Shown here: positions 5,263 to 29,710 of the stretch, piece by piece
Position numbering within the stretch: the first letter of the stretch is position 1
Layout of the letters: each line of letters opens with the position of its first letter
NCBI GenBank assembly: GCA_963676105.1
Contig: OY781039.1
Location: 1,350,001-1,382,000, forward strand
Length of the DNA: 32,000 nucleotides
Origin: Erysipelotrichaceae bacterium
GTDB taxonomy: Bacteria; Bacillota_I; Bacilli_A; Erysipelotrichales; Erysipelotrichaceae
Direction of reading: 5' to 3'
The notes under the pieces: model-generated
Databases searched by the model: none
The model's input: only the letters and a program-made list of their open reading frames with translations
What the model was told of the DNA's origin: nothing
Translations under genes and position numbers: made by a program

Positions 5263-5278
5263 GATAACACCTCTTTCA

Positions 5279-5806
5279 CTACTTAAGAGAAGGTGTTATT
5301 CCTTTTTGTGTCAAAATTTCTTTAATTTTTTTAAGATTTCGATAAAAACGTAAACGAACTGCATTTTCACTAATCTTTAATTCTTCTGATATTTCTTTAA
5401 AACTCATATCAAATCTAAAGTATGCTCCAAGTATTTGTTGATCTAGTTCACTTAGATTTTTTATTTCTTTCCACACTTCTTCAAAAACTATTTGATTTAA
5501 TACATCAATTTCTACATGAATCTTTTCATCTGCAATATACTCAGCTGTTTCATCTTCTAGATGTAATGGTTTAATGCTTTTCTTTTTATAATATCGAGCA
5601 CACTCTTTATCAACCATTTGTTTTAAGTAAGCTAAAGGATGATCAATGGTTTTATTCTTTTTAATGACATAGTTAAAGTAATCTTTATATACATTTTGGA
5701 TAATATCCTGTCCATCTTCAAAAATTGAAACCTTAAAATGAATATACTTGCTTAGCTTATCTACTGTTTCATAATAAAGTTCATTAAAGCGTGACACTTT
5801 ACTCAT
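5279..5806 (-). CDS. ECF-type sigma-70 family RNA polymerase sigma factor
   Basis: A region-2-like segment (DIIQNVYKDYFNYV) and a region-4 HTH (SFKEISEELKISENAVRLRFYRNLKKIKE). I place the start at the MSKVSRF ATG (5804-5806, RBS AAAGG). The longer track ORF to 5944 overlaps the rmuC start and looks spurious. Confidence 0.75.
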   Translation of the reverse strand: MSKVSRFNELYYETVDKLSKYIHFKVSIFEDGQDIIQNVYKDYFNYVIKKNKTIDHPLAYLKQMVDKECARYYKKKSIKPLHLEDETAEYIADEKIHVEIDVLNQIVFEEVWKEIKNLSELDQQILGAYFRFDMSFKEISEELKISENAVRLRFYRNLKKIKEILTQKGITPSLK

Positions 5807-5900
5807 ACCTTTATTATAAACTGTTTCATATTTTGGACAGATTAATGCTTTATTAAAAATAATTGAATTGTATTTGTTAAAATGTTTGTGAGGATACACT

Positions 5901-7193
5901 ATGGAACAAATTATTATTGGATTATTAACGATTGTGATTATCATGCAAATCGTTAGTTTAGTTAAAAAACCTAAGGCAGATGTTATTGATATCGAAAAGC
6001 CACTTAAAGACTTAAAAACTGAAATGCGTGAGGATACTAATCAAATGATCACCACCTTTTCAAACGTTATGACCAACAATTCAAAATCTTCTGCTGATAT
6101 GGTAGATAAACGTTTAGATGAACTAACAAAATATCTACGTTCTAACCAAGAACAACTTCAACAAGTTGTGTATAAATCATTAGTCGAAATTAATACAAAC
6201 TTAGAGAAAACAAGCAAAACAAACGAAGAGAAATTAAACGCTATTCGTGAAACCGTTGAACAACGACTAACAGCTCTACAAGAAGATAATTCTAAGAAAT
6301 TAGATAAGATGCGTGAAACCGTTGATGAAAAACTACAAAAAACTTTAGAAGATCGTATCTCTCAATCTTTCAAACAAGTCTCTGAACAATTAGAGTCTGT
6401 GTATAAATCATTAGGTGAAATGAAAAACATTGGAGTCGAAGTTGGAGATCTTAAAAAGGTTCTTTCAAACGTTAAAACTAAAGGTATCTTAGGTGAAATC
6501 CAACTTGGCGCAATCCTTGAACAAATCCTATCTCCTGAACAATACGAAGAAAATGTTGCGACGGTACCTGGATCTCAAGCACGTGTTGAATTTGCGGTTA
6601 AATTACCAGGTGATGGTAATATCCCAGTTTATCTACCTATCGATTCTAAGTTTCCAACTGAAGGTTATGCAAGATTACTCGATGCCTATGAAACAGGTGA
6701 TAAGGTTCAAATCGATACAGCCGCTAAAACTTTAGATACAACCATTAAAACTTTTGCGAAAGATATCCATGATAAATACATCCAAGTCCCAAGCACAACA
6801 GACTTTGGTATCTTATTCCTTCCGATTGAAGGTTTATATGCTGAAGCCGTTAAACGAGGTTTGGTAGAAACTCTTCAAAGACAATATAAGATTAATTTAG
6901 CTGGACCAACTACCATGGCTGCATTGCTTAACAGTCTACAAATGGGCTTTAAAACACTTGCGATCCAACAAAAGAGTGGAGAAGTTTGGAATGTATTATC
7001 CGCTGTTAAGACTGAGTTTGAAACTTTTGGTGGGATTCTACAAAACGCACAAGACAAACTCAATAAAACAAGTGCCGATCTAGACAAACTTATTGGTGTA
7101 CGTACACGCAGTATTAATCGTAAATTAAAAGATGTTTCTACATTACAAGTAGGCTCATCAGATGTATTAGGTATTGAATCAGAGGACGAATAG
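5901..7193 (+). CDS. rmuC: DNA recombination protein RmuC
   Basis: 430 aa with RBS GTGAGGA. It has an N-terminal TM, a long Q/E/K-rich coiled coil and a C-terminal RmuC core (EFAVKLPG...YLPIDSKFP...ILFLPIEGLY). Confidence 0.85.
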   Translation: MEQIIIGLLTIVIIMQIVSLVKKPKADVIDIEKPLKDLKTEMREDTNQMITTFSNVMTNNSKSSADMVDKRLDELTKYLRSNQEQLQQVVYKSLVEINTNLEKTSKTNEEKLNAIRETVEQRLTALQEDNSKKLDKMRETVDEKLQKTLEDRISQSFKQVSEQLESVYKSLGEMKNIGVEVGDLKKVLSNVKTKGILGEIQLGAILEQILSPEQYEENVATVPGSQARVEFAVKLPGDGNIPVYLPIDSKFPTEGYARLLDAYETGDKVQIDTAAKTLDTTIKTFAKDIHDKYIQVPSTTDFGILFLPIEGLYAEAVKRGLVETLQRQYKINLAGPTTMAALLNSLQMGFKTLAIQQKSGEVWNVLSAVKTEFETFGGILQNAQDKLNKTSADLDKLIGVRTRSINRKLKDVSTLQVGSSDVLGIESEDE

Positions 7194-8601: not shown

Positions 8602-8690
8602 AAAGCATCTCCCTCTTTGTCTTTTAGATATACCATCTAAGCCAAAATTGAGATAGAGCTTTTAATGGACAGGTCCAAAAAGATGGACAG

Positions 8691-9476
8691 TTAGTCATTC
8701 AAGCTTAATTTGTATTTATCATAGAATGATAAAATTATGTTCTTTTGATCGATATCTAGGTAAGTTAAAACGAAATCTACAGTATCTACATCAATACCAT
8801 AATAGGCTTCCGCAATCCCACCAGCCATACAGGCAATCGTGTCACTATCGCCACCTAAGGAGATAGCTGTACGTATACAGTCATCAAAACTATTTGATTT
8901 AAGAAAAGCATAGATCGCAAAGGGTACAGTCACTTGACATGTTTCATTGAATCCCGTTGATTGAATATCTTTGAGTCTTAAATCTAAATCATACTGAAAT
9001 CGATCTTCGATTTCTTTTTTAATAAAATCTTTTGATTGTTTTTCTTTCGCATAATAAATTGCTAAGGCAATTGCTTGTGCCCCTTTTATTCCTTCTTGAT
9101 GATTATGTGTTACAGCTGCACTATATTTCGATAGTTTGAGTACTTCATCAACACTACGCGCTACAAAGCCAATTGGTGAGATACGCATCGCCGAGCCATT
9201 ACCAAATGAATTGTATGGTTCAAGACTTTTAGATTGTCCCCATTTATAAAACATGCCACCAAAACCACGCTTATCCATATATGTTTTTCTAAAGTAATAT
9301 TTATAAGCTACATCAAAGCCCATGAATGGATGAAGTATCGCATCCATCGTGGCGATTGTTAATACCGTGTCATCGGTATAACGTAACTCGTCTCTTTCGA
9401 TCACAAAGTCTTTCTTAAACGTATTATTAAACTCAAAAACACTACCCACAATATCACCATAAATCGCTCCAAACAT
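8691..9476 (-). CDS. ADP-ribosylglycohydrolase (ARH/DraG) family protein
   Basis: N-terminal MFGAIYGDIVGSVFEF, YTDDTVLT and C-terminal GGDSDTIACMAGGIAEAYYG metal-site motifs. The start is set at ATG 9474-9476 with an AGGAGGA RBS. The 28-codon upstream extension in the track lacks an RBS. Confidence 0.85.
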   Translation of the reverse strand: MFGAIYGDIVGSVFEFNNTFKKDFVIERDELRYTDDTVLTIATMDAILHPFMGFDVAYKYYFRKTYMDKRGFGGMFYKWGQSKSLEPYNSFGNGSAMRISPIGFVARSVDEVLKLSKYSAAVTHNHQEGIKGAQAIALAIYYAKEKQSKDFIKKEIEDRFQYDLDLRLKDIQSTGFNETCQVTVPFAIYAFLKSNSFDDCIRTAISLGGDSDTIACMAGGIAEAYYGIDVDTVDFVLTYLDIDQKNIILSFYDKYKLSLND

Positions 9477-9575
9477 ATGCCATCCTCCTGTTGATGTCTC
9501 TATCTTATTACAGATTACTAAACTCAGGGTTAACTGTGAAGATACTTTAATTGTCCGCAATTACGTACAGTTCTA

Positions 9576-9604
9576 TTGAAACTTTAATTACCTAGGATTA
9601 TCTT
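9576..9604 (+). promoter_or_regulatory. candidate sigma-A promoter for the 47-aa ORF
   Basis: TTGAAA (9576-9581), 17-nt spacer, TATCTT (9599-9604). Confidence 0.3.
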
Positions 9605-9642
9605 ATAAATGACTTGGGGAAGTCAGTATCAGGAGGGTTATT

Positions 9643-9786
9643 ATGGATTTTATTATCATACTATTAGTTATTGTTTGGGTATTCTTTGGGATGATTGCGA
9701 ATGCAAAAACTGGTCAAGACATTGATAGAACCGTTCCAAATCCTCCCGATCCATTCGATGGTTTTGATGACTATGATGGGGTTTAG
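9643..9786 (+). CDS. 47-aa single-TM micropeptide (not in the supplied ORF track)
   Basis: AGGAGGG at 9631-9637, 5 nt before the ATG at 9643. Sequence MDFIIILLVIVWVFFGMIANAKTGQDIDRTVPNPPDPFDGFDDYDGV. It has its own terminator at 9841-9866. Confidence 0.55.
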   Translation: MDFIIILLVIVWVFFGMIANAKTGQDIDRTVPNPPDPFDGFDDYDGV

Positions 9787-11071: not shown

Positions 11072-11506
11072 TTAACCATCCCAACCAAATTGGGTAAAAG
11101 TCATTCTATTTAAGTAAGCTCTAATCGCAAATCTTATGTAAGGTATTGTATTATCTGGTAGTTTATCTAAGTCTACCCACTTTAACTCATCACATTTATC
11201 AAGTTCTTTATTTTCAACACTACCTTGATATGAAATACATTCAAAGAAATAGTCCATACGTTCACTCTCTGATTTTCGATGCATGATTTGGATTGGCTTT
11301 AAATGTTCTTTTTCAATATTTATCCCAATCTCTTCTTTCGCTTCACGAATCATCGCATCGATATAGGATTCATTCGCTTCTACATGTCCTGCACAAACAC
11401 TATACTTCCCATCTTCATAACCTGTATTAAAGCGTCTAAGCAATAATATTTGATTGTCTTTAATCAGAAATAAATGAACAGCTAAATAAACCTTAGTCCT
11501 TGCCAT
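11072..11506 (-). CDS. NUDIX hydrolase
   Basis: Complete Nudix box GHVEANESYIDAMIREAKEEIGI (G-x5-E-x7-REx2EExGI). Confidence 0.85.
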   Translation of the reverse strand: MARTKVYLAVHLFLIKDNQILLLRRFNTGYEDGKYSVCAGHVEANESYIDAMIREAKEEIGINIEKEHLKPIQIMHRKSESERMDYFFECISYQGSVENKELDKCDELKWVDLDKLPDNTIPYIRFAIRAYLNRMTFTQFGWDG

Positions 11507-12395
11507 GATTTAAATGATGATAAAGTGCTCCAATAAGATTACTATCATTTCCAAAGGCACAAGGAACAATATTCATCATCTTTTGTGGTGCCCAAGGTAG
11601 GTTTGAAAATAGTTTTTCTAACTTCGCTTTAATAGTTTCAATAAGTATTGCTTGAGCCGATACCCCACCACCAATCGCAATCGTTTCAGTATCTAAAATT
11701 GTTTGTATGGTAAATAACCCATAAGCAAATGATTCAGAGAAATCTTCTAGTACTTGTTGTGCTATCTTATCTTGGTTATGAATGGCTTCAAAGAAATCTT
11801 TCCCATTGATTGATTTAGGATCTAAACCTTTAGCGATCGCATAAGATCCGGTTAGATTTCCAGTTGAATTGATTCTTGCCCATACATCAAAGGGATCATT
11901 TACAGGATGAATGGTTGTTGGTAAACCTGATACTTCACCTGAAGCAAAATTGAATCCTCGATGGACTTTCCCATTAACCACAACTCCCCCACCAATACCT
12001 GTGCCAATGGTTAAGACCATACCACAGTCTACATTTTTAAGTGAACCTTTCCAAAGTTCGGCTGAAGCAGCACATTTCGCATCATTATCTATTGTGACAG
12101 GGACTTGTACTTTCTCTTGTATTAAGTCAGCTAACGGACATTCCATTATGTAGTGAGATAAAGCACCACCTGTAAACATAAAACCTCGATTAGCATCAAT
12201 GCGTCCAGGTGCACTCATCGCAATACCAGAAACATCTTTATGTTTCTCATAAATTTCAACTATAGTCTCGATAAAGTCATCTAAATTTGTTTTAGGTGTT
12301 TTTACATCACCCTTAGATAAAATCGTTGATTCTTCATTCATTAAGGCATATTTGATGGCTGTTCCACCAACATCAATACTTAGGTAAGTTTTCAT
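11493..12395 (-). CDS. ROK family sugar kinase
   Basis: N-terminal DVGGT ATP-binding motif, DNDAKCAA and GTGIGGGVVVNGKVHRG ROK signature. The Cys zinc motif typical of glucokinases is absent. It overlaps the NUDIX start by 14 nt. Confidence 0.8.
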   Translation of the reverse strand: MKTYLSIDVGGTAIKYALMNEESTILSKGDVKTPKTNLDDFIETIVEIYEKHKDVSGIAMSAPGRIDANRGFMFTGGALSHYIMECPLADLIQEKVQVPVTIDNDAKCAASAELWKGSLKNVDCGMVLTIGTGIGGGVVVNGKVHRGFNFASGEVSGLPTTIHPVNDPFDVWARINSTGNLTGSYAIAKGLDPKSINGKDFFEAIHNQDKIAQQVLEDFSESFAYGLFTIQTILDTETIAIGGGVSAQAILIETIKAKLEKLFSNLPWAPQKMMNIVPCAFGNDSNLIGALYHHLNHGKD

Positions 12396-12423
12396 AGTAT
12401 TCCTCGCTTAATAATACTTTAGC

Positions 12424-12450
12424 ATACAAAAAAAGACTCTTGCGAGTCTT
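12424..12450 (-). terminator. intrinsic terminator after the cyclophilin gene
   Basis: On the minus strand: AAGACTC-gcaa-GAGTCTT followed by TTTTTTT. It overlaps the stop codon. Confidence 0.7.
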
Positions 12451-12964
12451 ATAAAGTTTGATGTGGGTAATCAGCCCCAAATGTTTCAACAGTAACAGAT
12501 TGAATCACTTGTGCTTCAAGTGGTTTGTCCATACGATCGCGTTTTACACTAACGATACGATCGATGATATCCATGCCTCTTAATACTTTACCAAAGGCAG
12601 CATATTGACCATCTAAGTGAGGAGCATCCGCAACCATAATAAAGAATTGTGATCCAGCACTATCAGGGTGTTGAGATCGAGCCATAGATAGAACACCACG
12701 GCTGTGTTTTAAATCATTTTGAATTCCGTTATAACTGAATTCCCCTTTAATACTGTAGCCAGGACCACCAGTTCCTGTTCCATGTGGACAACCACCTTGA
12801 ACCATAAAACCAGGAATGACACGGTGAAATGTTAAACCATCATAAAATCCTTCTTGTGCTAAGTGAATGAAGTTGGCAACACTGATTGGTGCGACTTCAG
12901 GATTTAATTCGATATGGACTGCTTCGTCCCCTTTAAATTGCATAGTAACAACTGGATTTCTCAT
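12449..12964 (-). CDS. ppiB: cyclophilin-type peptidyl-prolyl cis-trans isomerase
   Basis: FHRVIPGFMVQGGCP...GTGGPGY...SMAR...GSQFFI motifs. Confidence 0.9.
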   Translation of the reverse strand: MRNPVVTMQFKGDEAVHIELNPEVAPISVANFIHLAQEGFYDGLTFHRVIPGFMVQGGCPHGTGTGGPGYSIKGEFSYNGIQNDLKHSRGVLSMARSQHPDSAGSQFFIMVADAPHLDGQYAAFGKVLRGMDIIDRIVSVKRDRMDKPLEAQVIQSVTVETFGADYPHQTL

Positions 12965-13158
12965 ATTTAATCTCTCTTCTTTTAATCAAAATAAAATGCA
13001 CTATTTAATGTGCCTACTTATAATACTCAATGTTACACCGAAAATCAAACATAATAAGTCATAACTGTACTTATAAAAACAAAAAAGAATAGTTATGTAA
13101 TATTGTTTAAGTCCATTTTGCTCGATTTTTTATTTTTATAATAAATTTATCAATTTTT

Positions 13159-13176
13159 TTGTGAAATATTTAACTA
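13159..13176. promoter_or_regulatory. candidate Rex (redox repressor) operator
   Basis: TTGTGAA-ATAT-TTAACTA, compared with the published Rex consensus TTGTGAAnnnnTTCACAA / TTGTTAAnnnnTTAACAA. There are 2 mismatches in the 14 specified positions to either form. It lies about 50 nt upstream of the hydrogenase operon start. Confidence 0.45.
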
Positions 13177-13227
13177 TTAGGCGAAAACTATGTTAATATA
13201 TTAACAAATATGGGAGGTATTTATAAT

Positions 13228-13734
13228 ATGACCGCTCGAATCAATGACAAAAGCTTGAAGACCATCAATAATATCATTCTCAAGCACAAAGACAAATTAG
13301 GACCTGTAAAACTCATGTTACATGATGTTCAACACGACCTTGGCTACATTCCATTTGAAGCTATGGAATTAATTTCTGAAACAACCGGAACACCGGTTGC
13401 GGAAATTTATGGTGTTGTCAGTTTTTACACCCAATTTACAACTGAACCTAAAGGCAAACATGTCATAAACATATGCATGGGAACAGCCTGTTATGTTAAA
13501 GGCTCACAACTCTTATTAAATCGCGTAAGTCTACTCACTAAAGCACCTGTTAATGGAACCAGCGAAGACGGTATCTTTTCTTTAGATGCAACTCGTTGTT
13601 TAGGTGCCTGTGGACTCGCACCTGCTTGTGTACTTGATGGTCAAGTTTATGGCAATGCCAACAGCAATAAATCATTTGAAGATGAGTTAAAGAAAATTTT
13701 GCGTAAGGAACTATCTACGCGTGAAACTCACTAA
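13228..13734 (+). CDS. hydC: NuoE-like [2Fe-2S] subunit of NAD(P)H-linked [FeFe]-hydrogenase (HydC)
   Basis: Thioredoxin-like 2Fe-2S pattern C-x4-C...C-x3-C (NICMGTACYVKG...ATRCLGACGLAP). GGAGG lies 10 nt before ATG 13228. The track start at 13210 has no RBS. Confidence 0.85.
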   Translation: MTARINDKSLKTINNIILKHKDKLGPVKLMLHDVQHDLGYIPFEAMELISETTGTPVAEIYGVVSFYTQFTTEPKGKHVINICMGTACYVKGSQLLLNRVSLLTKAPVNGTSEDGIFSLDATRCLGACGLAPACVLDGQVYGNANSNKSFEDELKKILRKELSTRETH

Positions 13735-14092
13735 CTTATTAAATTTTATTGAAGCTGAAGAACTCACGCTTCCCCAAGCTCATTTCTTAGAAGAAGAATT
13801 TTATTATGTCGCCACATCTGATTTAATGAGTGATTTACTCGCACTTATCGTCGCTCCATCTGGTCAAACTGTTCTAGTTACAGGTTTAGCTAATGGGTCA
13901 TCTTTAAGAACAGCAGAAATGCTTGATATCCAAAATATTATTTATTGTCGTAATAAACGACTGAATGAAGATCACGCTAAACTGGCACAATCGATGGATA
14001 TCAATACTTACACGACCAAACTTCCAATGTTTGATGTGATTGGTATCTTCTATCGTGAAGGTTTATTGACCGCAACGAGACTACATAAATGA
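13721..14092 (+). CDS. small DRTGG-like domain protein, function unknown (module gene 1)
   Basis: 123 aa, GTG start with AAGGAA 10 nt upstream, overlapping hydC by 14 nt. It is a paralogue of the 14510-14836 product. The DRTGG assignment comes from remembered pattern only. Confidence 0.55.
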   Translation: MKLTNLLNFIEAEELTLPQAHFLEEEFYYVATSDLMSDLLALIVAPSGQTVLVTGLANGSSLRTAEMLDIQNIIYCRNKRLNEDHAKLAQSMDINTYTTKLPMFDVIGIFYREGLLTATRLHK

Positions 14093-14520
14093 AATTAAGA
14101 ACCTTTCCAATTGCGGCTAATGATTACACTAATGCGGGTACTGTCTCTAGTCAAATTAAGAAATGGGCTAAAAGACAAGAATATGATCCAGCTTTTATAA
14201 GAAGAATCGCGATTGCGTGTTATGAAGCAGAAATCAATACTATTATTCACTCAAAAGGTGGTGTCGCTATCTTAGATTTAGATGAACACTACATCAATAT
14301 TATTTTCCAAGATTTTGGTCCAGGTATTAAAGACATTGAATTAGCCATGAAAGAAGGTTGGTCTTCGGCTAATGAAAGAGCCCAATCTATGGGATTTGGT
14401 GCAGGGCTTGGTTTACCAAATATAAAAAGAAATGTCGATAATTTCAAATTAGAATCCTGTTGCGAGGGGACTAGATTGACCCTTGGATTTAATCGCGAGG
14501 AGGCAATTCATGAACATTAA
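14089..14520 (+). CDS. stand-alone GHKL/HATPase_c protein, SpoIIAB/RsbW-sized Ser/Thr-kinase-like (module gene 2)
   Basis: 143 aa. N-box YEAEINTIIHS, G1 DFGPGI, G2 GFGAGLGLPNI. There is no DHp/His helix and no TM. ATGA start/stop overlap with the upstream gene. Confidence 0.75.
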   Translation: MKLRTFPIAANDYTNAGTVSSQIKKWAKRQEYDPAFIRRIAIACYEAEINTIIHSKGGVAILDLDEHYINIIFQDFGPGIKDIELAMKEGWSSANERAQSMGFGAGLGLPNIKRNVDNFKLESCCEGTRLTLGFNREEAIHEH

Positions 14521-14836
14521 AGATTTGATTAAAAAAACAAATTGGAAGCAAAGTGGATCTAATCGCAATGCTGAAATCAGTGGTATTTTTACTGGTGATC
14601 TACTCTCTTATGTCATGGGACATGGAGAAGACAAACAAATTTGGATTACCATGCAAAATCATATTAATGCGATTGGTGTAGCAAACTTAAAAGAATTTTC
14701 TGCGATTATCTTAATTGATTCATTAGAATTTGATGAAGACTGTTTGGCAAAAGCAAAAGCAGCACACGTTTGCGTACTAACAAGTCCGTTAAATGCAGTT
14801 GATACTCTTCGCACTCTCATTGATCTAGGTTTATAA
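14510..14836 (+). CDS. small DRTGG-like domain protein, paralogue of module gene 1 (module gene 3)
   Basis: GAGGAGG lies 7 nt before ATG 14510, with an 11-nt overlap with the upstream gene. It shares the pattern [SG]DL[ML]S...[VI].[VI]T...N...A..L...II...ED...KA...GL with the 13721 product. Confidence 0.6.
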   Translation: MNIKDLIKKTNWKQSGSNRNAEISGIFTGDLLSYVMGHGEDKQIWITMQNHINAIGVANLKEFSAIILIDSLEFDEDCLAKAKAAHVCVLTSPLNAVDTLRTLIDLGL

Positions 14837-14837
14837 A

Positions 14838-15521
14838 ATGAAATACGACTTGCACATACACTCAGGTTTATCTCCTTGCGCAGAGGATGAAATGAGCCCT
14901 AATAATATTGTGCAGATGGCCAAGTTGCATCATCTTGATCTTATTTCTGTATGTGACCATAACTCAACCCTTCAACAAGAAGTGCTTTCAAAAGTTGCAC
15001 AGAAACATGGTATTGAATATTGGTTTGGTATTGAAATAAATACCATTGAAGAAGTCCATGTTTGTGCTTATTTTAAAAAATTCGACCACATACAGCGCTT
15101 CCAATCTACTCTTAACCATTACTTCAGAAAGATTGAGAATAAAAAGGATATATTTGGGAATCAATTCGTCTATGACGAAAATGATAATCGTATTGATGAA
15201 TACCCTTATTTACTTTTAAATTCATTAGACTTAAGTTTGGAAAATTGTATTCGATTCATACATCAAAACCATGGTAAAGCTGTCTTAGCTCATATCTATG
15301 GTCGAGAAAATGGAATTATTCAACAACTTGGATTCATTCCTGAAAATATTTATATCGATGGAGTTGAAGTGACAACTGCAGAAGAAATCAAACGCTTTGA
15401 AACCGAATATCCACAGTATCAAAATTTACCAATACTTATTAACTCGGATGCACACCGCTTATGTGACATCATCAAGGATACACATGAATTACCACAAAGT
15501 GTTAAATGGTTTAGAAAATGA
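14838..15521 (+). CDS. PHP-domain metal-dependent phosphoesterase (module gene 4)
   Basis: 227 aa. YDLHIHSGLSPCA, ISVCDHNS, AVLAHIYG and INSDAHR are His/Asp metal-ligand motifs of the PHP fold. Confidence 0.75.
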   Translation: MKYDLHIHSGLSPCAEDEMSPNNIVQMAKLHHLDLISVCDHNSTLQQEVLSKVAQKHGIEYWFGIEINTIEEVHVCAYFKKFDHIQRFQSTLNHYFRKIENKKDIFGNQFVYDENDNRIDEYPYLLLNSLDLSLENCIRFIHQNHGKAVLAHIYGRENGIIQQLGFIPENIYIDGVEVTTAEEIKRFETEYPQYQNLPILINSDAHRLCDIIKDTHELPQSVKWFRK

Positions 15522-16042
15522 AAGATCTCGCTGAAGTTAGTTTAGAGCTTTTCATTAATGCTTGCGAAGCACAAGCCACTGTCATTGAATTTAGACTTAT
15601 TTTGGATTCTATCAATCAACTATCCATTAAAGATAATGGATGCGGGATGTCAAAGGAAGATCTAAAAGATATTACCTCATGCTTTAAGACTAGTAGAAGT
15701 ACACGAAACTTAGGATTTGGCTGTGCCTTCTTTGCGCAAGCCATACAACAAGCTGATGGCCAGATTGAAATACAATCAGAACTTAATCAAGGCACCATCA
15801 TATATGCATCATGGGATTCAAATCATATCGATGCATTACCACTAGGCAATTTAGGGGAAAGTATTGCGCTAGTACTACAAAGAAATCCAGATTTGGATTT
15901 CAGCTTCACCCTACAGAAAAAATCATCTATCAAAACATTTCGTAGTCGTGAAGTTAAAGAAGCTATTCATCCACTCACAATTGACGAAATTGAAATCATA
16001 AAGTGGATTGAACAACATATTAATTCACTTTTTAACATTTAG
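15518..16042 (+). CDS. second, divergent GHKL/HATPase_c-like ATP-binding protein (module gene 5)
   Basis: 174 aa. ELFINACEA (N-box-like), KDNGCGM (G1), NLGFGCAFF (G2-like), GTII. ATGA overlap with the PHP gene. Confidence 0.6.
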   Translation: MKDLAEVSLELFINACEAQATVIEFRLILDSINQLSIKDNGCGMSKEDLKDITSCFKTSRSTRNLGFGCAFFAQAIQQADGQIEIQSELNQGTIIYASWDSNHIDALPLGNLGESIALVLQRNPDLDFSFTLQKKSSIKTFRSREVKEAIHPLTIDEIEIIKWIEQHINSLFNI

Positions 16043-16057
16043 AAAGGAGTCTCTTAA

Positions 16058-16438
16058 ATGAAAAGTCTAGAAGAATTAAACAAATTACGTGATGAAGCTT
16101 TAAAACGGGTTAACTTAAGGCAAGATTCACAAGATAATTACCGAGTATTAGTCGGTATGGCAACCTGTGGTATAGCTTCAGGTTCACGCCCTGTTTTGAA
16201 AGAGTTTATGAACTGTCTTGAGAAAGATCCTCAGGCTGTAACCGTACAACAAACAGGTTGTATCGGTATGTGTCAGTTTGAACCTATTGTCGAAGTTGTT
16301 GATCAAGAGGGCGAAAAAACAACATACTTTAAAGTTACCCCTGATATGGCAAAAGAAATTTATAGGGAACATATTAAAAATGGTCATGTGATTACAGAGT
16401 ATACTCAAGCACATTATCAAAAAGGAAGTGAGGACTAA
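16058..16438 (+). CDS. thioredoxin-like [2Fe-2S] ferredoxin subunit (HydD-like)
   Basis: 126 aa with RBS AAAGGAG. Cys pattern MATCGIASGS...TGCIGMCQFEP. Confidence 0.8.
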   Translation: MKSLEELNKLRDEALKRVNLRQDSQDNYRVLVGMATCGIASGSRPVLKEFMNCLEKDPQAVTVQQTGCIGMCQFEPIVEVVDQEGEKTTYFKVTPDMAKEIYREHIKNGHVITEYTQAHYQKGSED

Positions 16439-16440
16439 TC

Positions 16441-18237
16441 ATGGAACGGACTCATATTCTTGTATGTGCAGGCACAGGCTGTACTTCTTCTAGTTCACTA
16501 GAGATTGTTAAACGTTTAGAAAAGGGATTAATCAACCGCCATTTAGATGATGAAGTCAAAGTTGTACGAACTGGTTGTTTTGGTTTATGTCAAAAAGGAC
16601 CCATTGTCGCTATTCATCCAGATCGAATCTTTTATAATCATGTATCCGTAAAAGATGTTGATGAAATATTAGATGAACATATTTATAAGGGTCGTCCTGT
16701 TCAACGCTTAATGATTACAGATATTGATGAAGAGACTGAAAATAAAATTTTTGATTTCGACAAGATTCGATTCTACGCAAAACAACATCGTATTGTGCTT
16801 AAAAACTGTGGTGTCATAAATCCTGAAGACATTACCGAATACATTGCGATGGATGGTTATCAAGCCTTAGGTAAAGTATTAACTACGATGAGCCCTCAAG
16901 AAACCATCGATGAAATAAGAGATAGTGGTTTAAGAGGCCGTGGTGGTGGAGGCTTTCCAACCGGTAAGAAATGGCAATTCGCAGCTGATCAAGACAATAA
17001 AGACAAATACGTTATCTGTAATGCAGATGAAGGTGATCCAGGTGCCTTCATGGATCGATCTGTTTTAGAAGGTGATCCACATTGTGTCTTAGAAGCGATG
17101 GCCATAGCTGGGTATGCCATTGGTGCTCATACTGGATATGTGTATATTCGTGCAGAATATCCAATCGCTGTTCAACGATTAAAAATTGCCATTGAGCAAG
17201 CTCATGAGTATGGTTTATTAGGTAAAAATATATTAGGTTCAAAATTTAATTTTGATATCGAAATAAGATTGGGTGCTGGTGCCTTTGTATGTGGTGAAGA
17301 AACTGCTTTAATCGCATCCATTGAATCACGTCGAGGTATGCCATCGGTTAAACCACCATTCCCTGCCGTAAAAGGGGTGTGGGGTAAACCTACCATTATT
17401 AATAATGTCGAAACATTTGCGAATGTTTGTCCGATTATCCGTAATGGTTCAAAGTGGTTCTCAGCGATTGGAACAGAAAAATCTAAAGGTACAAAAGTAT
17501 TCGCCTTGGGTGGAAAGATTAAAAACACAGGCTTAGTTGAAGTGCCTATGGGAACGACCCTCAGAGATGTCATTTATGAAATTGGTGGTGGTATTCCTGA
17601 TAATAAAAACTTTAAAGCCGTTCAAACCGGTGGTCCATCTGGAGGTTGTTTAACTGAAGAACATTTAGATACTCCAATAGATTTTGATAATTTGATTGCC
17701 TTAGGTTCAATGATGGGTTCAGGCGGTATGATCGTCTTAGACGAAGATAATTGTATGGTCGATGTAGCCCGCTTCTATATGGATTTCATTGTTGATGAAT
17801 CCTGTGGAAAATGTACACCTTGTCGTATAGGAACCAAACGGATGTTAGAACTCTTAGAAAGCATTTGTGATGGGACAGGAACCATGGAAACTCTACATGA
17901 ACTAGAAGACCTCGCAGCACATGTCAAAGTCAATTCACTTTGTGGTTTAGGTCAAACCGCACCAAATCCAGTTCTTTCTACATTGAGATTATTTAAAGAT
18001 GAATATCTAGCACACGTGGTGGATAAGACCTGTCCTGCTCATGTTTGTAAGAACTTACTCTCTTATGTGATTAATCCAGATATCTGTCGTAAATGTGGTA
18101 TCTGCGCTAAAGGATGTCCTACTTCAGCCATTACTGGTGTCTTAGGTAAAGAAGCTTACGTCATTGATGAAGAGAAATGTATACGATGTGGCGCATGTAT
18201 TACAGCTTGCCCATTTGAAGTTATAGAAAGGATATAA
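16441..18237 (+). CDS. hydB: NuoF-like FMN/NAD(P)H-binding subunit of [FeFe]-hydrogenase (HydB)
   Basis: 598 aa. N-terminal Trx-like 2Fe-2S (VCAGTGC...GCFGLC), GRGGGGFPTGKKW FMN/NADH site, ESCGKCTPCR 4Fe-4S, and a C-terminal 2x[4Fe-4S] ferredoxin (CRKCGICAKGCP, CIRCGACITACP). Confidence 0.92.
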   Translation: MERTHILVCAGTGCTSSSSLEIVKRLEKGLINRHLDDEVKVVRTGCFGLCQKGPIVAIHPDRIFYNHVSVKDVDEILDEHIYKGRPVQRLMITDIDEETENKIFDFDKIRFYAKQHRIVLKNCGVINPEDITEYIAMDGYQALGKVLTTMSPQETIDEIRDSGLRGRGGGGFPTGKKWQFAADQDNKDKYVICNADEGDPGAFMDRSVLEGDPHCVLEAMAIAGYAIGAHTGYVYIRAEYPIAVQRLKIAIEQAHEYGLLGKNILGSKFNFDIEIRLGAGAFVCGEETALIASIESRRGMPSVKPPFPAVKGVWGKPTIINNVETFANVCPIIRNGSKWFSAIGTEKSKGTKVFALGGKIKNTGLVEVPMGTTLRDVIYEIGGGIPDNKNFKAVQTGGPSGGCLTEEHLDTPIDFDNLIALGSMMGSGGMIVLDEDNCMVDVARFYMDFIVDESCGKCTPCRIGTKRMLELLESICDGTGTMETLHELEDLAAHVKVNSLCGLGQTAPNPVLSTLRLFKDEYLAHVVDKTCPAHVCKNLLSYVINPDICRKCGICAKGCPTSAITGVLGKEAYVIDEEKCIRCGACITACPFEVIERI

Positions 18238-18249
18238 GGAGGAACACTC

Positions 18250-20016
18250 ATGAAAAAAGTAAATATTACAATCAACCATAAAAACTATGAAGTTGATTCA
18301 AATCTAACTGTTCTTGAAGCCGCAAGATCAGTAGGCATTGCGATTCCTACCTTGTGTTTCTTAAAGGATATTAACGAAACAAGTGCTTGTCGTGTCTGTG
18401 TCGTTGAAGTTAAAAACGCACGAAGTTTAGTCACTGCTTGTTCTTACCCGGTTCAAGAAGGTATGGAAGTTTTAACACATTCAGGTAAAGTCATCGATTC
18501 ACGTAAAAAAACAGTTGAACTCATACTTTCCAATCACTCAAAGGACTGTTTAGGTTGTGTTAGAAATCAAAACTGTGAACTCCAAAATATCACTCAAGAT
18601 TTAAACATCCGTGATATTCCTTATCAAAATGGCGCTAAAACAGTTCCTACCTTTGATGAAGTTGCTGATGGGATTGTTCGTGATACCTCTAAATGTATCC
18701 TATGCGGACGTTGTATTGAAATGTGCAAACAAGCTCAGGGTTTAGGGATTTTAAACTTTATTGGTCGCGGTTTTGAGACTAAAGTTGGTCCTGTCTTAGA
18801 CAAAAGTTTTAATGATGTGAATTGCATGCAGTGTGGACAATGTATAACGGTATGTCCTGTTGGAGCGCTCAGCGAAAAAGAGGAAATTCATAATGTCATT
18901 AATGCCTTAAATGATCCAAATAAAACAGTAGTTGTGCAAACAGCACCAGCCATTCGCGCAAGTTTAGGTGAAGAATTTAATATGCCTATCGGTACACGTG
19001 TAACGGGTAAAATGGTTTCTGCACTTAGACGTATTGGCTTTGACAGAGTTTATGATACAAACTATGCCGCTGATTTAACCATTATGGAAGAAGGGACTGA
19101 ATTTATTAATCGATTTAAAGACGGTGGTACACTTCCACTTATTACGTCTTGTTCACCTGGTTGGATTCGCTATATGGAATTTGAGTATCCTGATTTAATT
19201 CCAAATATTTCAACCTGTAAGAGTCCACACATGATGTTTGGCGCAATTCTTAAATCATACTTTGCGCAAACAAAGAATTTAAATCCAGATGATGTTTATG
19301 TAGTATCTATCATGCCTTGTACCGCTAAAAAGGTTGAAAAGAAACGCATGGATGAACACATGGAACGAGTTGATGTTGATGCGGTTCTAACGACCCGTGA
19401 GTTAGGTCGACTTATAAAACTCTACGGCATTGATTTCGTGAATTTACCTGATGAAGAATTTGACCAAGATATGTTTGGTGAATACACGGGTGCCGCTGCC
19501 TTATTTGGCGCATCAGGCGGTGTTATGGAAGCTGCTTTAAGAACCGTCACTGAAATACTCACTGAAAAAGAATTAGACAACGTTGATTTTGATGTAGTCA
19601 GAGGACATGAAGGCATTAAAGAAGCAGCCTTAGATATTAATGGAACTGAAGTACGTGTTGCCGTAGCGCACAGTATGCGTCTAGCTAAACCTCTCTTAGA
19701 TCAAATTAGAGCTGGTACATCCCCTTATGACTTTATTGAAATCATGGGTTGTCCTGGTGGTTGCATTAATGGCGGTGGACAATCGATCGTTAGTGCAAAT
19801 GTACGAAATCGTATTGGAAATGACTTTATGAGATTACGCGCTCAAGCCATGTATGACGAAGACAAATCCAGAACATATCGTAAATCACATGAAAATAAAC
19901 AAGTTCAAGATTTATACAAAAACTTCTTAGACCATCCAGGTTCTCACTTATCTCATAATCTAGTTCATACGCATTACAGCGCAAAAGAGAGATATAAAGT
20001 ATTTAGAAATGATTAA
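18250..20016 (+). CDS. hydA: [FeFe]-hydrogenase catalytic subunit, CpI-like M3 architecture (HydA)
   Basis: 588 aa with RBS AAGGAGG. N-terminal 2Fe-2S, His-ligated 4Fe-4S (HSKDCLGCVRNQNC) and 2x[4Fe-4S] (CILCGRCIEMC, CMQCGQCITVCP). H-cluster motifs are L1 TSCSPGW (non-canonical), L2 MPCTAKK and L3 EIMGCPGGCINGGGQ. Confidence 0.92.
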   Translation: MKKVNITINHKNYEVDSNLTVLEAARSVGIAIPTLCFLKDINETSACRVCVVEVKNARSLVTACSYPVQEGMEVLTHSGKVIDSRKKTVELILSNHSKDCLGCVRNQNCELQNITQDLNIRDIPYQNGAKTVPTFDEVADGIVRDTSKCILCGRCIEMCKQAQGLGILNFIGRGFETKVGPVLDKSFNDVNCMQCGQCITVCPVGALSEKEEIHNVINALNDPNKTVVVQTAPAIRASLGEEFNMPIGTRVTGKMVSALRRIGFDRVYDTNYAADLTIMEEGTEFINRFKDGGTLPLITSCSPGWIRYMEFEYPDLIPNISTCKSPHMMFGAILKSYFAQTKNLNPDDVYVVSIMPCTAKKVEKKRMDEHMERVDVDAVLTTRELGRLIKLYGIDFVNLPDEEFDQDMFGEYTGAAALFGASGGVMEAALRTVTEILTEKELDNVDFDVVRGHEGIKEAALDINGTEVRVAVAHSMRLAKPLLDQIRAGTSPYDFIEIMGCPGGCINGGGQSIVSANVRNRIGNDFMRLRAQAMYDEDKSRTYRKSHENKQVQDLYKNFLDHPGSHLSHNLVHTHYSAKERYKVFRND

Positions 20017-20038
20017 ACGCCTTCGGGCGTTTTTTTTG
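20016..20038 (+). terminator. intrinsic terminator of the hydrogenase operon
   Basis: AACGCC-ttcg-GGCGTT followed by a T7 run, immediately after the hydA stop. Confidence 0.85.
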
Positions 20039-20051
20039 TTATGCTTGTATT

Positions 20052-21092
20052 ATGAACATAAACAAACTACAAAAGGTCATATGTGCCCCAACATTAATTA
20101 CAGATGAAAAGATGATTGATTATTTAATTGGTCAACATTTTCATGTCAGTGAACGTTTCTTAGGCTTACTTATCAGTAATACAGAAGCTAAACTTTTCTT
20201 AAACAATTTATTTCCAACAGACTTAAAGAATTTAGAGATTATACGATTCTCAGATACAGATGATGTTGTTAGCTTACTAAGCCAACATTTAAGTCATAAA
20301 ACACTCTACGTAGATAAACACTTACGAGCAGAATTCCTACTAAAACTCATGCATTCATTACCTCATTTAGACGTACAGATCGATACACAAGCAGATCAAG
20401 TACGTAGTATTAAAGATAAGCTTGAACAAGAAAAGATGCGTAAAGCCTCTAAAATAAATGATTCTGTTATGTCATTAGTTCCTTCATTATTAAAATTGGG
20501 TGTAACTGAGTTGGAAGTTGCTGAAGGTATTACTCAGTTATTTAAAGATTTGGGTGCTGATCAAATTAGTTTTGGATCCATTGTCGCTTTTGGAGATCAT
20601 GGAGCTGACCCACATGCGATGCCAAGCGAAAGAACACTTAAAGAAAATGAATCCATAATAATAGATATGGGTTGTGTAAAAGATGGCTATTGTAGCGATA
20701 TGACACGTACCTTTTTTATCAACAATAATCCATATCAAAATGTATACGATTTAGTTAAAAACGCAAATCTTGCGGCTGAAGCCATGATTAAACCAGGTGT
20801 TAGATTTAGTGATATTGATAAAGCAGCACGAGATGTCATTGAAAAAGCAGGCTATGGTGAGTATTTTATTCATCGTACAGGACATGGAATCGGTAAAGAT
20901 GTTCATGAACCTTATGATGTTTCATCATCCAATGACATGATTGTACAAGAAGGCATGTGTTTCTCAATTGAACCTGGCATCTATTTAGAAGGACAAGTTG
21001 GGGTAAGAATTGAAGACTTAGTTCTTGTCACAAAAGATGGATGCGAAGTATTAAATCAGTATCCAAAAGACAAAGAAGTATTAAAACGATAA
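20052..21092 (+). CDS. M24 family Xaa-Pro peptidase
   Basis: Metal-ligand motifs DMGCVKDGYCSDMTRT, HRTGHGIGKDVHE, SIEPGIY, GVRIEDLV. Confidence 0.85.
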   Translation: MNINKLQKVICAPTLITDEKMIDYLIGQHFHVSERFLGLLISNTEAKLFLNNLFPTDLKNLEIIRFSDTDDVVSLLSQHLSHKTLYVDKHLRAEFLLKLMHSLPHLDVQIDTQADQVRSIKDKLEQEKMRKASKINDSVMSLVPSLLKLGVTELEVAEGITQLFKDLGADQISFGSIVAFGDHGADPHAMPSERTLKENESIIIDMGCVKDGYCSDMTRTFFINNNPYQNVYDLVKNANLAAEAMIKPGVRFSDIDKAARDVIEKAGYGEYFIHRTGHGIGKDVHEPYDVSSSNDMIVQEGMCFSIEPGIYLEGQVGVRIEDLVLVTKDGCEVLNQYPKDKEVLKR

Positions 21093-21118
21093 AAAAGACC
21101 CTCGGGTCTTTTTGTTTT
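21091..21118. terminator. bidirectional intrinsic terminator
   Basis: AAAAAAGACC-ctcg-GGTCTTTTTGTTTT, with an A-run and a T-run flanking the stem. Confidence 0.8.
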
Positions 21119-21178
21119 AGGGGGGTTGGTACTGTTTGGGTGGGGGAAGTCAGTACCAACACAGGTAACTACCTGCCC
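21091..21178 (-). ncRNA. candidate C-rich small RNA (independent or 3'UTR-derived), about 88 nt
   Basis: On the minus strand: a perfect TATAAT at 21188-21183, then hairpin CAGGU-aguu-ACCUG. Next comes hairpin GUUGGUACUG-[ACUUCCCCCACCCAAA]-CAGUACCAAC, an unpaired CCCCC, and the terminator. It forms a GC-rich island in an AT-rich spacer, with no coding potential. Confidence 0.35.
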
Positions 21179-21327
21179 TTTTATTATACACAGTTTATGA
21201 CAAATTTCGGCATAATTCATTGTTATTATCAAAAAAACTTTTAATTCACTATAACGTTTTAGACTAATATACTTAATTATCTACTTTTTAATATAAAAAA
21301 CTAAAATGTTTCGTAATATATCTTTAT

Positions 21328-21789
21328 TTAGATATCTAACTTATACCAGTCGACTTCAGTAAATCCAAATTTTTTATAAACAGGTTGTCCTTCAAGTGAT
21401 GCACCTAGAAAAAGTCGTGTTAAACCTTGTTTCTGTGCTTCTTCTTTTAGGATGCTTAATACTTGAGTTGCATAACCCTTCTTACGATATTGTGGTTTTG
21501 TATACATATTGGTGATATAACCCATGTAGCCTGTGTTGTTCGAAAATGAAGGTGGATACTCTACCCACATCATAGCCCCTGTAGCACAAACTTCATTATT
21601 TTCTTCCAAGAAGACTTGAATAAAGTGTTGTCGATCAAACATTGTATTTAAATAACGTTTAAGATGAGCAATATATTCATCACTGCTTTTTTCATCACCA
21701 TTAAATTGTGATTCTTCATCAATAAGTTGAAGTGTTCTTAGCTTAACAATTAAATCAATGTCATCTTTAGTCGCAAAACGTATATTCAT
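21328..21789 (-). CDS. GNAT family N-acetyltransferase (copy 2)
   Basis: 153 aa with RBS AAGAGG. Acetyl-CoA motif QYRKKGYATQVL and GFTEVDWY tail. Paralogue of the upstream gene. Confidence 0.8.
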   Translation of the reverse strand: MNIRFATKDDIDLIVKLRTLQLIDEESQFNGDEKSSDEYIAHLKRYLNTMFDRQHFIQVFLEENNEVCATGAMMWVEYPPSFSNNTGYMGYITNMYTKPQYRKKGYATQVLSILKEEAQKQGLTRLFLGASLEGQPVYKKFGFTEVDWYKLDI

Positions 21790-28119: not shown

Positions 28120-28136
28120 TATTGAAAGGATTTATT

Positions 28137-29309: not shown

Positions 29310-29710
29310 TGAAACAAACTGTACTCTTTGACTTCCCTAATGAAGAAGTTAAACAACCGATCGTTAATGATTTAATTAAAAACTATAATTTAAACGTTAA
29401 TATTCTTAGAGCCTCCATCGATTACAATGGCCGTGGTTTTCTACTCTCTGAAATTGAAGGGGATGATAAAGTTTTTGATGAAGCTTTAGCTTTTGTAAAG
29501 AAAAGTCATGTCATCGTTAATATCATTGAATCAGCTATTCTTATTGATCGTGATGTTTGTGTTAACTGTGGCGCATGTACATCTGTCTGTCCTGTTGATG
29601 CATTAACGATGGACGATACAGCTACACTTTCTTTTGATTCAAATAAATGTATTGATTGTAAGCTATGTGTAGTAGCTTGCCCAACTAAAGCAATTCGAGA
29701 CATCCTTTAA
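29309..29710 (+). CDS. NIL domain + 2x[4Fe-4S] ferredoxin protein
   Basis: 133 aa. An N-terminal NIL-like ~75 aa is followed by CVNCGACTSVCP and CIDCKLCVVACP. The start ATG overlaps the upstream stop (TAATG). Confidence 0.8.
   Translation: MKQTVLFDFPNEEVKQPIVNDLIKNYNLNVNILRASIDYNGRGFLLSEIEGDDKVFDEALAFVKKSHVIVNIIESAILIDRDVCVNCGACTSVCPVDALTMDDTATLSFDSNKCIDCKLCVVACPTKAIRDIL

Follow-up and report, generated by a model that had tools for sequence, protein, structure and literature searches.

The 32,000-nucleotide stretch analyzed here (hereafter the window; positions 1,350,001 to 1,382,000 of the forward strand of contig OY781039.1, assembly GCA_963676105.1, from an Erysipelotrichaceae bacterium) contains five short genes, O1 to O5, lodged among the structural genes of a [FeFe]-hydrogenase operon of the HydABC type. 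The favoured interpretation is that these genes form the core, without the sensor, of a conserved signalling cassette accessory to complexes that convert NADH (reduced nicotinamide adenine dinucleotide) and ferredoxin, and the window carries the HydS-less form of a known, mechanistically unexplained gene cluster, HydS being a putative sensory hydrogenase. Regarding function, the cassette may act as an ATP-dependent post-translational switch in which O5 is the target-proximal component, a plausible but still tentative proposal. The five genes (lengths in amino acids, aa) are the following:

O1, 13721-14092, + strand: GTG start, 123 aa; stand-alone protein with a predicted DRTGG domain, type 1
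O2, 14089-14520, + strand: 143 aa; GHKL ATP-binding protein of the SpoIIAB/RsbW class, putative Ser/Thr kinase
O3, 14510-14836, + strand: ATG start, 108 aa; stand-alone protein with a predicted DRTGG domain, type 2
O4, 14838-15521, + strand: 227 aa; metal-dependent phosphoesterase of the PHP family
O5, 15518-16042, + strand: 174 aa; histidine-kinase-type catalytic (ATP-binding) domain without DHp, with a C-terminal extension of ~75-80 residues

The original prediction had described this block as a self-contained, partner-switching-like phosphorylation device inserted into the hydrogenase operon. Its inventory of two bare GHKL domains and a PHP protein was confirmed by Pfam searches, which returned HATPase_c_2 for O2, PHP for O4 and HATPase_c for O5, together with DRTGG for the orthologues of O1 and O3, and the ORF map reproduced the coordinates and junctions of the five same-strand genes. 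The idea of a unit peculiar to this operon, by contrast, did not survive comparison with other genomes.

Conservation of the cassette and its association with HydS

Relatives were sought in one genome per GTDB species, with the alignment of the PHP protein (O4) as anchor; at least 420 were found and 80 loci were fetched, whose ORFs were labelled by single-seed phmmer with seed proteins and then counted (individual loci are cited by L numbers). These 80 loci belong to Bacillota, Bacteroidota, Nitrospirota, Desulfobacterota, Chloroflexota, Caldisericota, Bipolaricaulota, Aminicenantia and Paceibacterota. Across the scanned loci the genes of the core kept the order O1-O2-[X]-O3-O4 throughout and, since this order recurs in 80/80 of those fetched and in many phyla, the arrangement stands far above chance; the genes once regarded as an insertion are thus the core of a cassette present in at least 420 species. 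Position X, between O2 and O3, is occupied by HydS in 65/80 loci, whereas in 10/80 HydS is absent and O2 and O3 are adjacent, so that the block of the window corresponds to the HydS-less form of a widespread cassette. As the original prediction required, the block is syntenic with the hydrogenase operon in related genomes. The position of hydC varies among loci: it may come first, as in the window, between the PHP gene and O5, last, or in a divergent operon.

The HydS proteins of the cassette, 390-480 aa long, combine an H-cluster domain with a pair of 4Fe-4S motifs at the N-terminus and a 4-Cys FeS motif at the C-terminus, and this architecture is that of the group-D (M2e) putative sensory [FeFe] hydrogenases. 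In the Thermoanaerobacter locus L032 the order is DRTGG, HATPase_c_2, HydS (Fer4 x2 + Fe_hyd_lg_C + FeS), DRTGG, PHP, HydC, HATPase_c and HydD. Its HydS shares a 90%-identity cluster with ADH60598 of T. mathranii A3, and its O1 and PHP clusters include ADH60596 and ADH60600, respectively; these three shared clusters indicate that the biochemically studied TamHydS sits in the same cassette. That 'protein kinases' lie between the group-D and the bifurcating hydrogenase was noted in 2012 (PMC3561251), and a histidine-kinase-like ATPase is known to flank TamHydS (PMC8163306), the signal transmission and interaction partners of which are stated to be unknown (PMC8163306; PMC13104023, April 2026). 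In the literature searched, no paper was found to treat the PHP or DRTGG proteins of the cassette, its association with rnf, nuo-like or Fdh operons, the fusions to CBS and DRTGG domains described below, or lineages devoid of the sensor.

An anti-phage defence system built from GHKL and PHP proteins was also considered and rejected, given that none of the five proteins has a PADLOC match and that the synteny is with energy metabolism.

Loss of HydS and selection on the remaining genes

At the window locus O2 and O3 overlap by 11 nt, which leaves no room for HydS, and all the flanking members of the cassette are kept in canonical order. The same HydS-less nine-gene operon is shared by the loci L081-L084 (PHP identity to the window of 75, 65, 60 and 55%, respectively), while Erysipelotrichaceae at 44-49% PHP identity carry HydS; by parsimony, this distribution points to a single loss in the window clade, clean with respect to the locus. 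Outside this clade too HydS-less cassettes arose, in the 10/80 loci mentioned above.

The genes left behind remain under purifying selection. In the comparison with the closest relative, L081, the ratio of nonsynonymous to synonymous substitution rates (dN/dS) was 0.06-0.21 for O1, O3, O4 and O5, values that are approximate since dS is saturated (>1); for O2 saturation of dS precluded a ratio, the amino acid identity being 85% and dN 0.10. All catalytic and ligand motif residues are retained in the window proteins. The module proteins evolve faster than the structural subunits, with 75-87% identity to L081 versus 94-96%.

Interchangeable sensors and targets

The cassette is modular for both the sensor (HydS, CBS or none) and the target (Hyd, Rnf, Nuo-like or Fdh-type complexes). 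In L007, a metagenome-assembled genome (MAG) of Clostridiaceae, and in L008 the same five genes, again without HydS, lie directly upstream of rnfCDGEAB (8737-16438 in L007); L010 and L015 have the cassette upstream of rnfCDGEAB with HydS present, and in L071 it is also directly upstream of these genes. In the rnf-linked loci the O5-type ATPase immediately precedes rnfC, and a histidine-kinase-like ATP-binding gene has been reported upstream of rnfC in Clostridium aceticum (PMC7911925). A HydS-less five-gene cassette precedes a complex-I-like operon encoding NuoB, NuoD, NuoH, NuoI and NuoL homologues in the Nitrospirota MAG L072 (663-10339), and in L078 the cassette follows an operon of the NuoF-GltD/molybdopterin formate-dehydrogenase type.

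As to the sensor, the cassettes of L024 and L031, situated within NuoEF-type oxidoreductase operons, lack HydS and contain an O2-type kinase with an N-terminal CBS pair (8629-9642 and 8705-9649, respectively). The partner complex in these two loci is of NuoEF type, with a 1083-aa Fer2_4/Fer4/Pyr_redox_2 subunit in place of the hydrogenase. In L071 a 537-aa HydS (11292-12905) is fused to an N-terminal O1-type DRTGG domain (110 bits with the O1 profile) and a separate O1 is missing, a fusion that links O1 with HydS; in the fused domain some otherwise invariant residues are changed (D38N, G55S, T64A). Reduced forms also occur, namely O3-PHP-hydC-O5-hydDBA in L023, O3-PHP alone in L036 and PHP alone before hydCDBA in L018, and the O3 D-L-L-S motif, including its invariant serine, is intact in L023 and L036.

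O2, a putative kinase of the SpoIIAB class, and the question of a sigma-factor target

O2 matches HATPase_c_2 with 28.6 bits (cut-off 27.4), and its family profile retrieved the structures of SpoIIAB (E 8e-12, residues 27-139) and RsbW (5e-4). It is a stand-alone GHKL protein with the Bergerat fold, the N, G1 and G2 boxes and the ~140-150 aa expected of that class, and residues E46/E48/N50 of the N box, D75-x-G-P-G-I of G1 and GFGAGxGL of G2 are invariant in 44 orthologues. These features place O2 in the SpoIIAB/RsbW class as a putative Ser/Thr kinase; the original prediction had linked stand-alone GHKL proteins of ~145 aa to this class, which holds for O2, whereas O5 is not SpoIIAB-like, its relatives being histidine kinases.

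The resemblance to SpoIIAB raises the alternative that the cassette acts as a partner switch, anti-sigma or transcriptional, on a target encoded elsewhere: O2 would sequester a sigma factor or another regulator, O1 would serve as antagonist, and the controlled output would be transcription of hyd, rnf and related operons. SpoIIAB and RsbW are indeed the best matches of O2, the order of a small protein followed by a kinase mimics spoIIAA-spoIIAB and rsbV-rsbW, and the HydS-linked kinases have been assumed in the literature to regulate expression of the downstream hydrogenase (PMC3561251). Nevertheless, O2 scores 33.6 bits with TIGR01925, far under the cut-off of 135 for an anti-sigma F equivalog; its presumed antagonist is not a STAS protein; and no sigma factor or DNA-binding gene was seen in the window operon or at the mapped cassette positions (85 loci). 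In agreement with the latter, and as had been predicted, the Pfam and NCBIfam scan of the nine operon products returned no DHp, receiver, sigma or DNA-binding domain. The conserved Rex-like operator described below already provides a transcriptional route, and the sigma/RsgI-like pair at 4216-5944, encoded on the opposite strand, is of an unrelated type. Taken together, a sigma-factor target appears improbable.

O1 and O3, predicted stand-alone DRTGG proteins

The window O1 has no Pfam match and the window O3 reaches only 16.7 bits with DRTGG (PF07085), below the threshold of 25.2, but the orthologues in L032 and L007 pass the cut-off (30.1 and 31.6 bits for O1; 30.4 and 31.9 bits for O3). Among at least 7990 O1 homologue clusters, nearly all of the best 120 carry a precomputed PF07085 match. 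The AlphaFold2 (AF2) model of O1 (predicted local distance difference test, pLDDT, 81) has as best fold matches AF1212 (2ioj; template modelling score, TM, 0.64-0.66) and the DRTGG domain of CBS-pyrophosphatase (3l2b/3l31). The relationship between O1 and O3, proposed earlier to be paralogues, is evident at the profile level, where the two families are homologous over their full length (hhalign probability 99.6%, E 4e-24), and is not apparent by BLASTP of the window proteins themselves (E 29). On the model of O1, and on the homology of the O3 family to it, both proteins are predicted to have the DRTGG fold. A role as STAS antagonists was rejected, the fold search with the O1 model having returned DRTGG only and no STAS protein.

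Residues D34, M36, S37, D38, T54, T64 and K79 are invariant in O1, and the D-L-L-S motif and N53 (numbered from ATG 14510) in O3. Each protein has a constant neighbour: O1 is the gene immediately upstream of the O2 kinase in every locus (a separate O1 being absent in L071), and O3 immediately precedes the PHP gene in 77/80 fetched loci, the exceptions being L018, L053 and L074.

O4, the PHP phosphoesterase, and the possibility of nucleotide sensing

O4 matches PHP (PF02811) with 32.3 bits (cut-off 26.4). The Foldseek neighbours of its AF2 model (pLDDT 95) comprise 3o0f (TrpH-like), EndoQ, RNase AM, 2yb1 and the PHP domain of Pol III, and the 32 matches at E <= 1e-3 are TrpH-like proteins, EndoQ, RNase AM, PsfC and Pol III PHP. 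The reading of O4 as a protein phosphatase of the CpsB/YwqE type, a type that the original prediction had mentioned, was rejected, as this type is absent from the 11 PDB sequence matches and from those 32 structural matches. Invariant positions in an alignment of 23 sequences are H6, H8, D40, H41, E66, H74, H152, E177, D204, H206 and S12-P13-C14, and the metal-set and S-P-C positions are 99-100% conserved in the wider family of 84 sequences. The L-S-P-C sequence (residues 11-14; S12 and C14 invariant, L11 and P13 at 99%), the S-P-C part of which is specific to this family, directly follows the HxH metal motif. Since TrpH-type PHP proteins carry S-D-G at this position, C14 may replace a metal-binding Asp.

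The nature of O4 bears on the main rival explanation, according to which the cassette senses nucleotides or adenylates and matches the activity of the target complex (hydrogenase, Rnf or Nuo-like) to the energy charge. In this scheme a nucleotide-type signal or side product would be the substrate hydrolysed by the PHP enzyme (candidates being pAp, Ap4A, a dinucleotide in linear or cyclic form, or a damage product of NAD or flavin mononucleotide, FMN), the GHKL ATPase and the PHP enzyme would have the DRTGG proteins as their ligand-binding regulatory subunits, and the GHKL proteins would report the ATP/ADP state while binding the NuoF-type module. In agreement with this, the best structural matches of O4 are TrpH-like proteins, the AMP/phosphate-bound amidohydrolase-superfamily enzyme 2yb1, RNase AM and EndoQ, and NCBIfam gives weak matches to 3',5'-nucleoside bisphosphate phosphatase and RNase RNM. 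The O2 homologue of L024 and L031 has a CBS pair, a classic adenylate-binding module, and the closest solved DRTGG domains lie inside the CBS regulatory region of a pyrophosphatase; the abundance of invariant Asp, Ser, Thr, Arg and Lys residues in O1 suggests a pocket; the PHP gene and the O3-PHP pair are maintained where the O2 kinase is missing; and the target complexes all handle NADH, FMN or ferredoxin. On the other hand, the characterized members of the class of O2 are protein Ser kinases or anti-sigma factors, we know of no ligand for any DRTGG domain, the cassette has neither a nucleotide cyclase nor a synthetase, and the placement of a group-D HydS between two DRTGG-enzyme pairs is left unexplained. 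Nucleotide sensing is therefore regarded as possible, but rather unlikely.

O5, an orphan histidine-kinase-type ATP-binding protein encoded beside the target operon

O5 matches HATPase_c with 47.5 bits, and its family profile aligns with the catalytic domains of KinB, ZraS and WalK (E 1e-16 to 1e-12; 2e-16 for KinB) over profile positions 4-101 only, the C-terminal ~75-80 residues being unmatched. The protein begins at the catalytic domain, as the solved catalytic domains have their start aligned to profile position 4, and neither HisKA nor Response_reg matched any operon product in Pfam. N14, D39-x-G-x-G and G66-x-G68 are invariant. In place of the F-box proline, which 99% of 72 orthologues have, the window protein carries Cys55.

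Where O5 and its downstream neighbour were visible (58 loci), the latter was HydD in 49 and RnfC in 4, and O5 stays directly upstream of hydD-hydB or rnfC even where the O1-O4 block is on the other strand. This placement assigns O5 to the target operon and separates it from the other four genes, with which it had been grouped as one unit. By gene position and published description, without sequence comparison, O5 is judged to be the equivalent of 'HydE' of A. woodii, which is not in the purified active enzyme and for which 'assembly or signalling' has been suggested as a role (PMC3315566). Cthe_0339 of C. thermocellum is likewise on record as a kinase-like gene in a hyd operon (PMC3990059).

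An assembly role extended to the whole cassette, with the GHKL ATPases working as chaperones in the manner of Hsp90 or MutL and the PHP enzyme helping the insertion or repair of FMN or Fe-S clusters in NuoF-type subunits, would agree with the adjacency of O5 to the genes for such subunits, with the suggestion made for HydE and with the secondary matches of O5 to the MutL-type HATPase_c_3. It is difficult to reconcile with the sensor modules, HydS and CBS, embedded in the cassette, with O2 being a signalling kinase of the SpoIIAB class, with the bifurcating hydrogenases described in a review (PMC6288185), which were purified as HydABC or HydABCD without any cassette protein, and with the much faster evolution of the module proteins, and is considered very improbable.

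A proposed switch acting after translation

The signalling class of the O2 kinase, the interchangeability of sensors and targets, the lack of a DNA-binding domain in the cassette proteins scanned (the nine operon products of the window, L032 and L007) and the faster evolution of the module proteins argue for a regulatory cassette. The analysis shows the identities of the genes, their synteny, the absence of HydS from the locus through loss, the purifying selection and the variety of partner operons; we infer a regulatory rather than a structural role, the chemistry of a phospho-switch and the position of O5 as output element. In the absence of a DNA-binding partner in the operon, it is reasonable to place the control after translation. 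The favoured switch would adjust the activity or the assembly state of the flavin/NADH module of HydABC: O2, paired with O1, would write a phosphorylated or ATP-bound state, O4, paired with O3, would remove the state set by O2, and O5 would be the element contacting HydD/HydB. As HydS is absent, the input at the window locus cannot be H2 sensed there; it would probably be adenylate or another metabolite status read by the GHKL/DRTGG proteins. At the transcriptional level, the operon is probably under separate control by Rex.

Several observations weigh against a switch of this kind. Phosphotransfer by O2 or O5 is something that we infer; the proposed substrates, O1 and O3, appear from their modelled fold to be DRTGG and not STAS proteins; and no DRTGG protein is known to us to be phosphorylated. 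Some ten polar or charged residues of O1 are invariant, which makes a ligand pocket likelier than a phospho-acceptor loop, and the substrates of the structural neighbours of the O4 model are nucleotides or nucleic acids rather than proteins. The occurrence of O3-PHP (L023, L036, both with the O3 serine kept) or PHP (L018) without a linked O2 kinase argues against a simple cycle in which O2 writes and PHP erases. As for the partner-switch model originally put forward, the class of the kinase is upheld, but the DRTGG identity of the small proteins, the kinship of the PHP enzyme with hydrolases of nucleotides and nucleic acids and these O3-PHP pairs weaken the rest of it. Regarding the scope of the comparison, the census was anchored on the PHP gene and does not give the share of hydABC operons that have the cassette. 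With respect to a HydS encoded elsewhere in the genome, none of the best 120 of at least 7971 HydS-profile matches was on window-clade contigs, which is weak evidence; many of those 120 share contigs with more distant PHP homologues.

A variant of the post-translational switch would assign the switching to the DRTGG proteins themselves: in a signalling system not recognised before, the SpoIIAB-class kinase and the PHP enzyme, each docked to its own paralogue, would set the state of an O5 ATPase that binds NuoF-type flavoprotein subunits and thereby gate electron flow through Rnf, complex-I-like enzymes, formate dehydrogenases and bifurcating hydrogenases, with HydS and CBS as interchangeable inputs and the window as an input-less core. 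In this specific form the proposal is doubtful.

Operon layout and transcriptional signals

The remaining features of the operon are listed below:

hydC, 13228-13734, + strand: NuoE-like thioredoxin-like [2Fe-2S] subunit (PF01257, 130.8 bits)
hydD-like gene, 16058-16438, + strand: small thioredoxin-like [2Fe-2S] protein (PF01257, 23.8 bits, slightly under the cut-off)
hydB, 16441-18237, + strand: NuoF-like FMN/NADH-binding subunit with Complex1_51K, NADH_4Fe-4S, SLBB and Fer4 domains
hydA, 18250-20016, + strand: [FeFe]-hydrogenase catalytic subunit, group A, NADH-dependent/bifurcating type
Intrinsic terminator, 20015-20042, + strand: 7-bp G+C-rich stem with a T run behind it, immediately 3' of the hydA stop codon
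Rex-operator-like inverted repeat 1, 13159-13176, upstream of hydC: TTGTGAAATATTTAACTA, 1 mismatch to TTGTKAANNNNTTMACAA
Rex-operator-like inverted repeat 2, 13190-13207, upstream of hydC: ATGTTAATATATTAACAA, 1 mismatch to TTGTKAANNNNTTMACAA

The genes follow one another with hardly any interval (hydC and O1 share 14 nt, and O2 and O3 share 11 nt from 14510; ATGA junctions lie at 14089 and 15518, and 1 nt separates O3 from O4 at 14838), and the terminator after hydA, called at 20015-20032, is the sole strong one found on the + strand, so that the nine genes hydC-O1-O2-O3-O4-O5-hydD-hydB-hydA form one operon. The same evidence bears out the earlier claim that the five genes are real and co-translated with the hydrogenase operon. 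The most likely start of hydC is ATG 13228, preceded by a GGGAGG ribosome-binding site and in agreement with the 168-aa orthologue in L081, and the 108-aa product of O3 from ATG 14510 is the exact protein on record; the mechanical ORF list begins hydC at 13210 and O3 at TTG 14483.

With a group A HydA (NF040763, 871.6 bits, cut-off 765; Fe_hyd_lg_C, 314 bits), a NuoF-like HydB (493.7 bits with TIGR01959, under the cut-off of 558.65) and a NuoE-like HydC, the host operon corresponds in its encoded subunits to an electron-bifurcating [FeFe] hydrogenase of the HydABC type, bifurcation itself being a prediction. The position of the hydD-like gene before hydB is conserved across related loci.

Both Rex-like repeats lie a short way upstream of the ribosome-binding site of hydC. 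The number of such matches in the window at <=2 mismatches (3 versus 2.15 expected) is, taken alone, not above chance; repeat 2, however, is kept in L081, L082 and L083 while the remaining intergenic DNA has diverged. As putative Rex operators, the two boxes point to a probable transcriptional control of the hyd operon by NADH/NAD+. No rex gene was found within the window. A regulatory RNA or riboswitch in the operon was rejected, no Rfam family matching in 12000-21500.

Other genes in the window

An ADP-ribosylglycohydrolase gene of the DraG-like family (8691-9560, - strand) is located 3.7 kb upstream of the hyd operon and is also upstream in L081, with no evidence of a link to the hydrogenase. 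A PAS-PAS-GGDEF diguanylate cyclase (129-2378, - strand) and the sigma-70-family/RsgI-like anti-sigma pair (4216-5944, - strand) are encoded on the opposite strand, with no apparent relation to the operon. The + strand at 28122-29710 encodes a sulfur-incorporation enzyme of homocysteine biosynthesis (HcyBio, 511 bits) and, after it, a NIL-domain/2x4Fe-4S ferredoxin.

Significance and comparison with known systems

The analysis defines the full conserved partner set of the cassette, in which a SpoIIAB-class kinase and a PHP enzyme are joined by two DRTGG proteins and by an orphan catalytic domain of the histidine-kinase type, and identifies natural sensor-less lineages, that of the window among them. 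This minimal set makes HydS signal transduction directly testable at the level of protein pairs and residues, and bears as well on the function of the kinase-like gene inside hydABC operons ('HydE', Cthe_0339). If post-translational control proves true, the cassette would be a general regulator of the ferredoxin/NADH balance in anaerobes, with relevance to fermentative H2 and biofuel yields and to hydrogen metabolism in the gut and rumen.

Among known systems, the TamHydS cluster (also Caldicellulosiruptor Athe_1292 and Csac_1857, and Teth39_1463) has the same proteins as the window in the same order upstream of HydABC; compared with this cluster and L032, the window lacks the HydS gene and has hydC first instead of between PHP and O5. 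HydE of A. woodii (Awo_c27000) and Cthe_0339 of C. thermocellum are, like O5, histidine-kinase ATP-binding-domain proteins encoded between hydC and hydD/hydB, a position for which TTE0891 is presumably a further counterpart, but in the window O5 follows the PHP gene and not hydC. The SpoIIAA-SpoIIAB-sigmaF and RsbV-RsbW-sigmaB systems resemble the cassette in having a stand-alone GHKL protein of ~145 aa, with SpoIIAB and RsbW as the best matches of O2, preceded by the gene of a small protein and accompanied in the module by a phosphoesterase gene; they differ in that the cassette contains DRTGG instead of STAS, PHP instead of PP2C and no sigma factor.

The HfsABCD/group-C HydS (PAS) systems of Thermoanaerobacterium and Ruminococcus albus include a PP2C phosphatase and a Ser kinase. 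They share with the cassette the combination of a sensory-type [FeFe] hydrogenase, a SpoIIAB-like kinase and a phosphatase beside fermentative hydrogenase genes, whereas the cassette has DRTGG and PHP and neither PAS nor PP2C, and the window in addition has no sensory hydrogenase. Finally, the CBS-DRTGG region of family II pyrophosphatase (3l2b, 3l31) and AF1212 (2ioj) provide the closest solved folds to O1 and O3, and the DRTGG/CBS association of this pyrophosphatase recurs in the L024 and L031 cassettes; unlike the pyrophosphatase domain, O1 and O3 stand alone, with their own invariant D-L-(M/L)-S motif, and are not inserted between CBS motifs.

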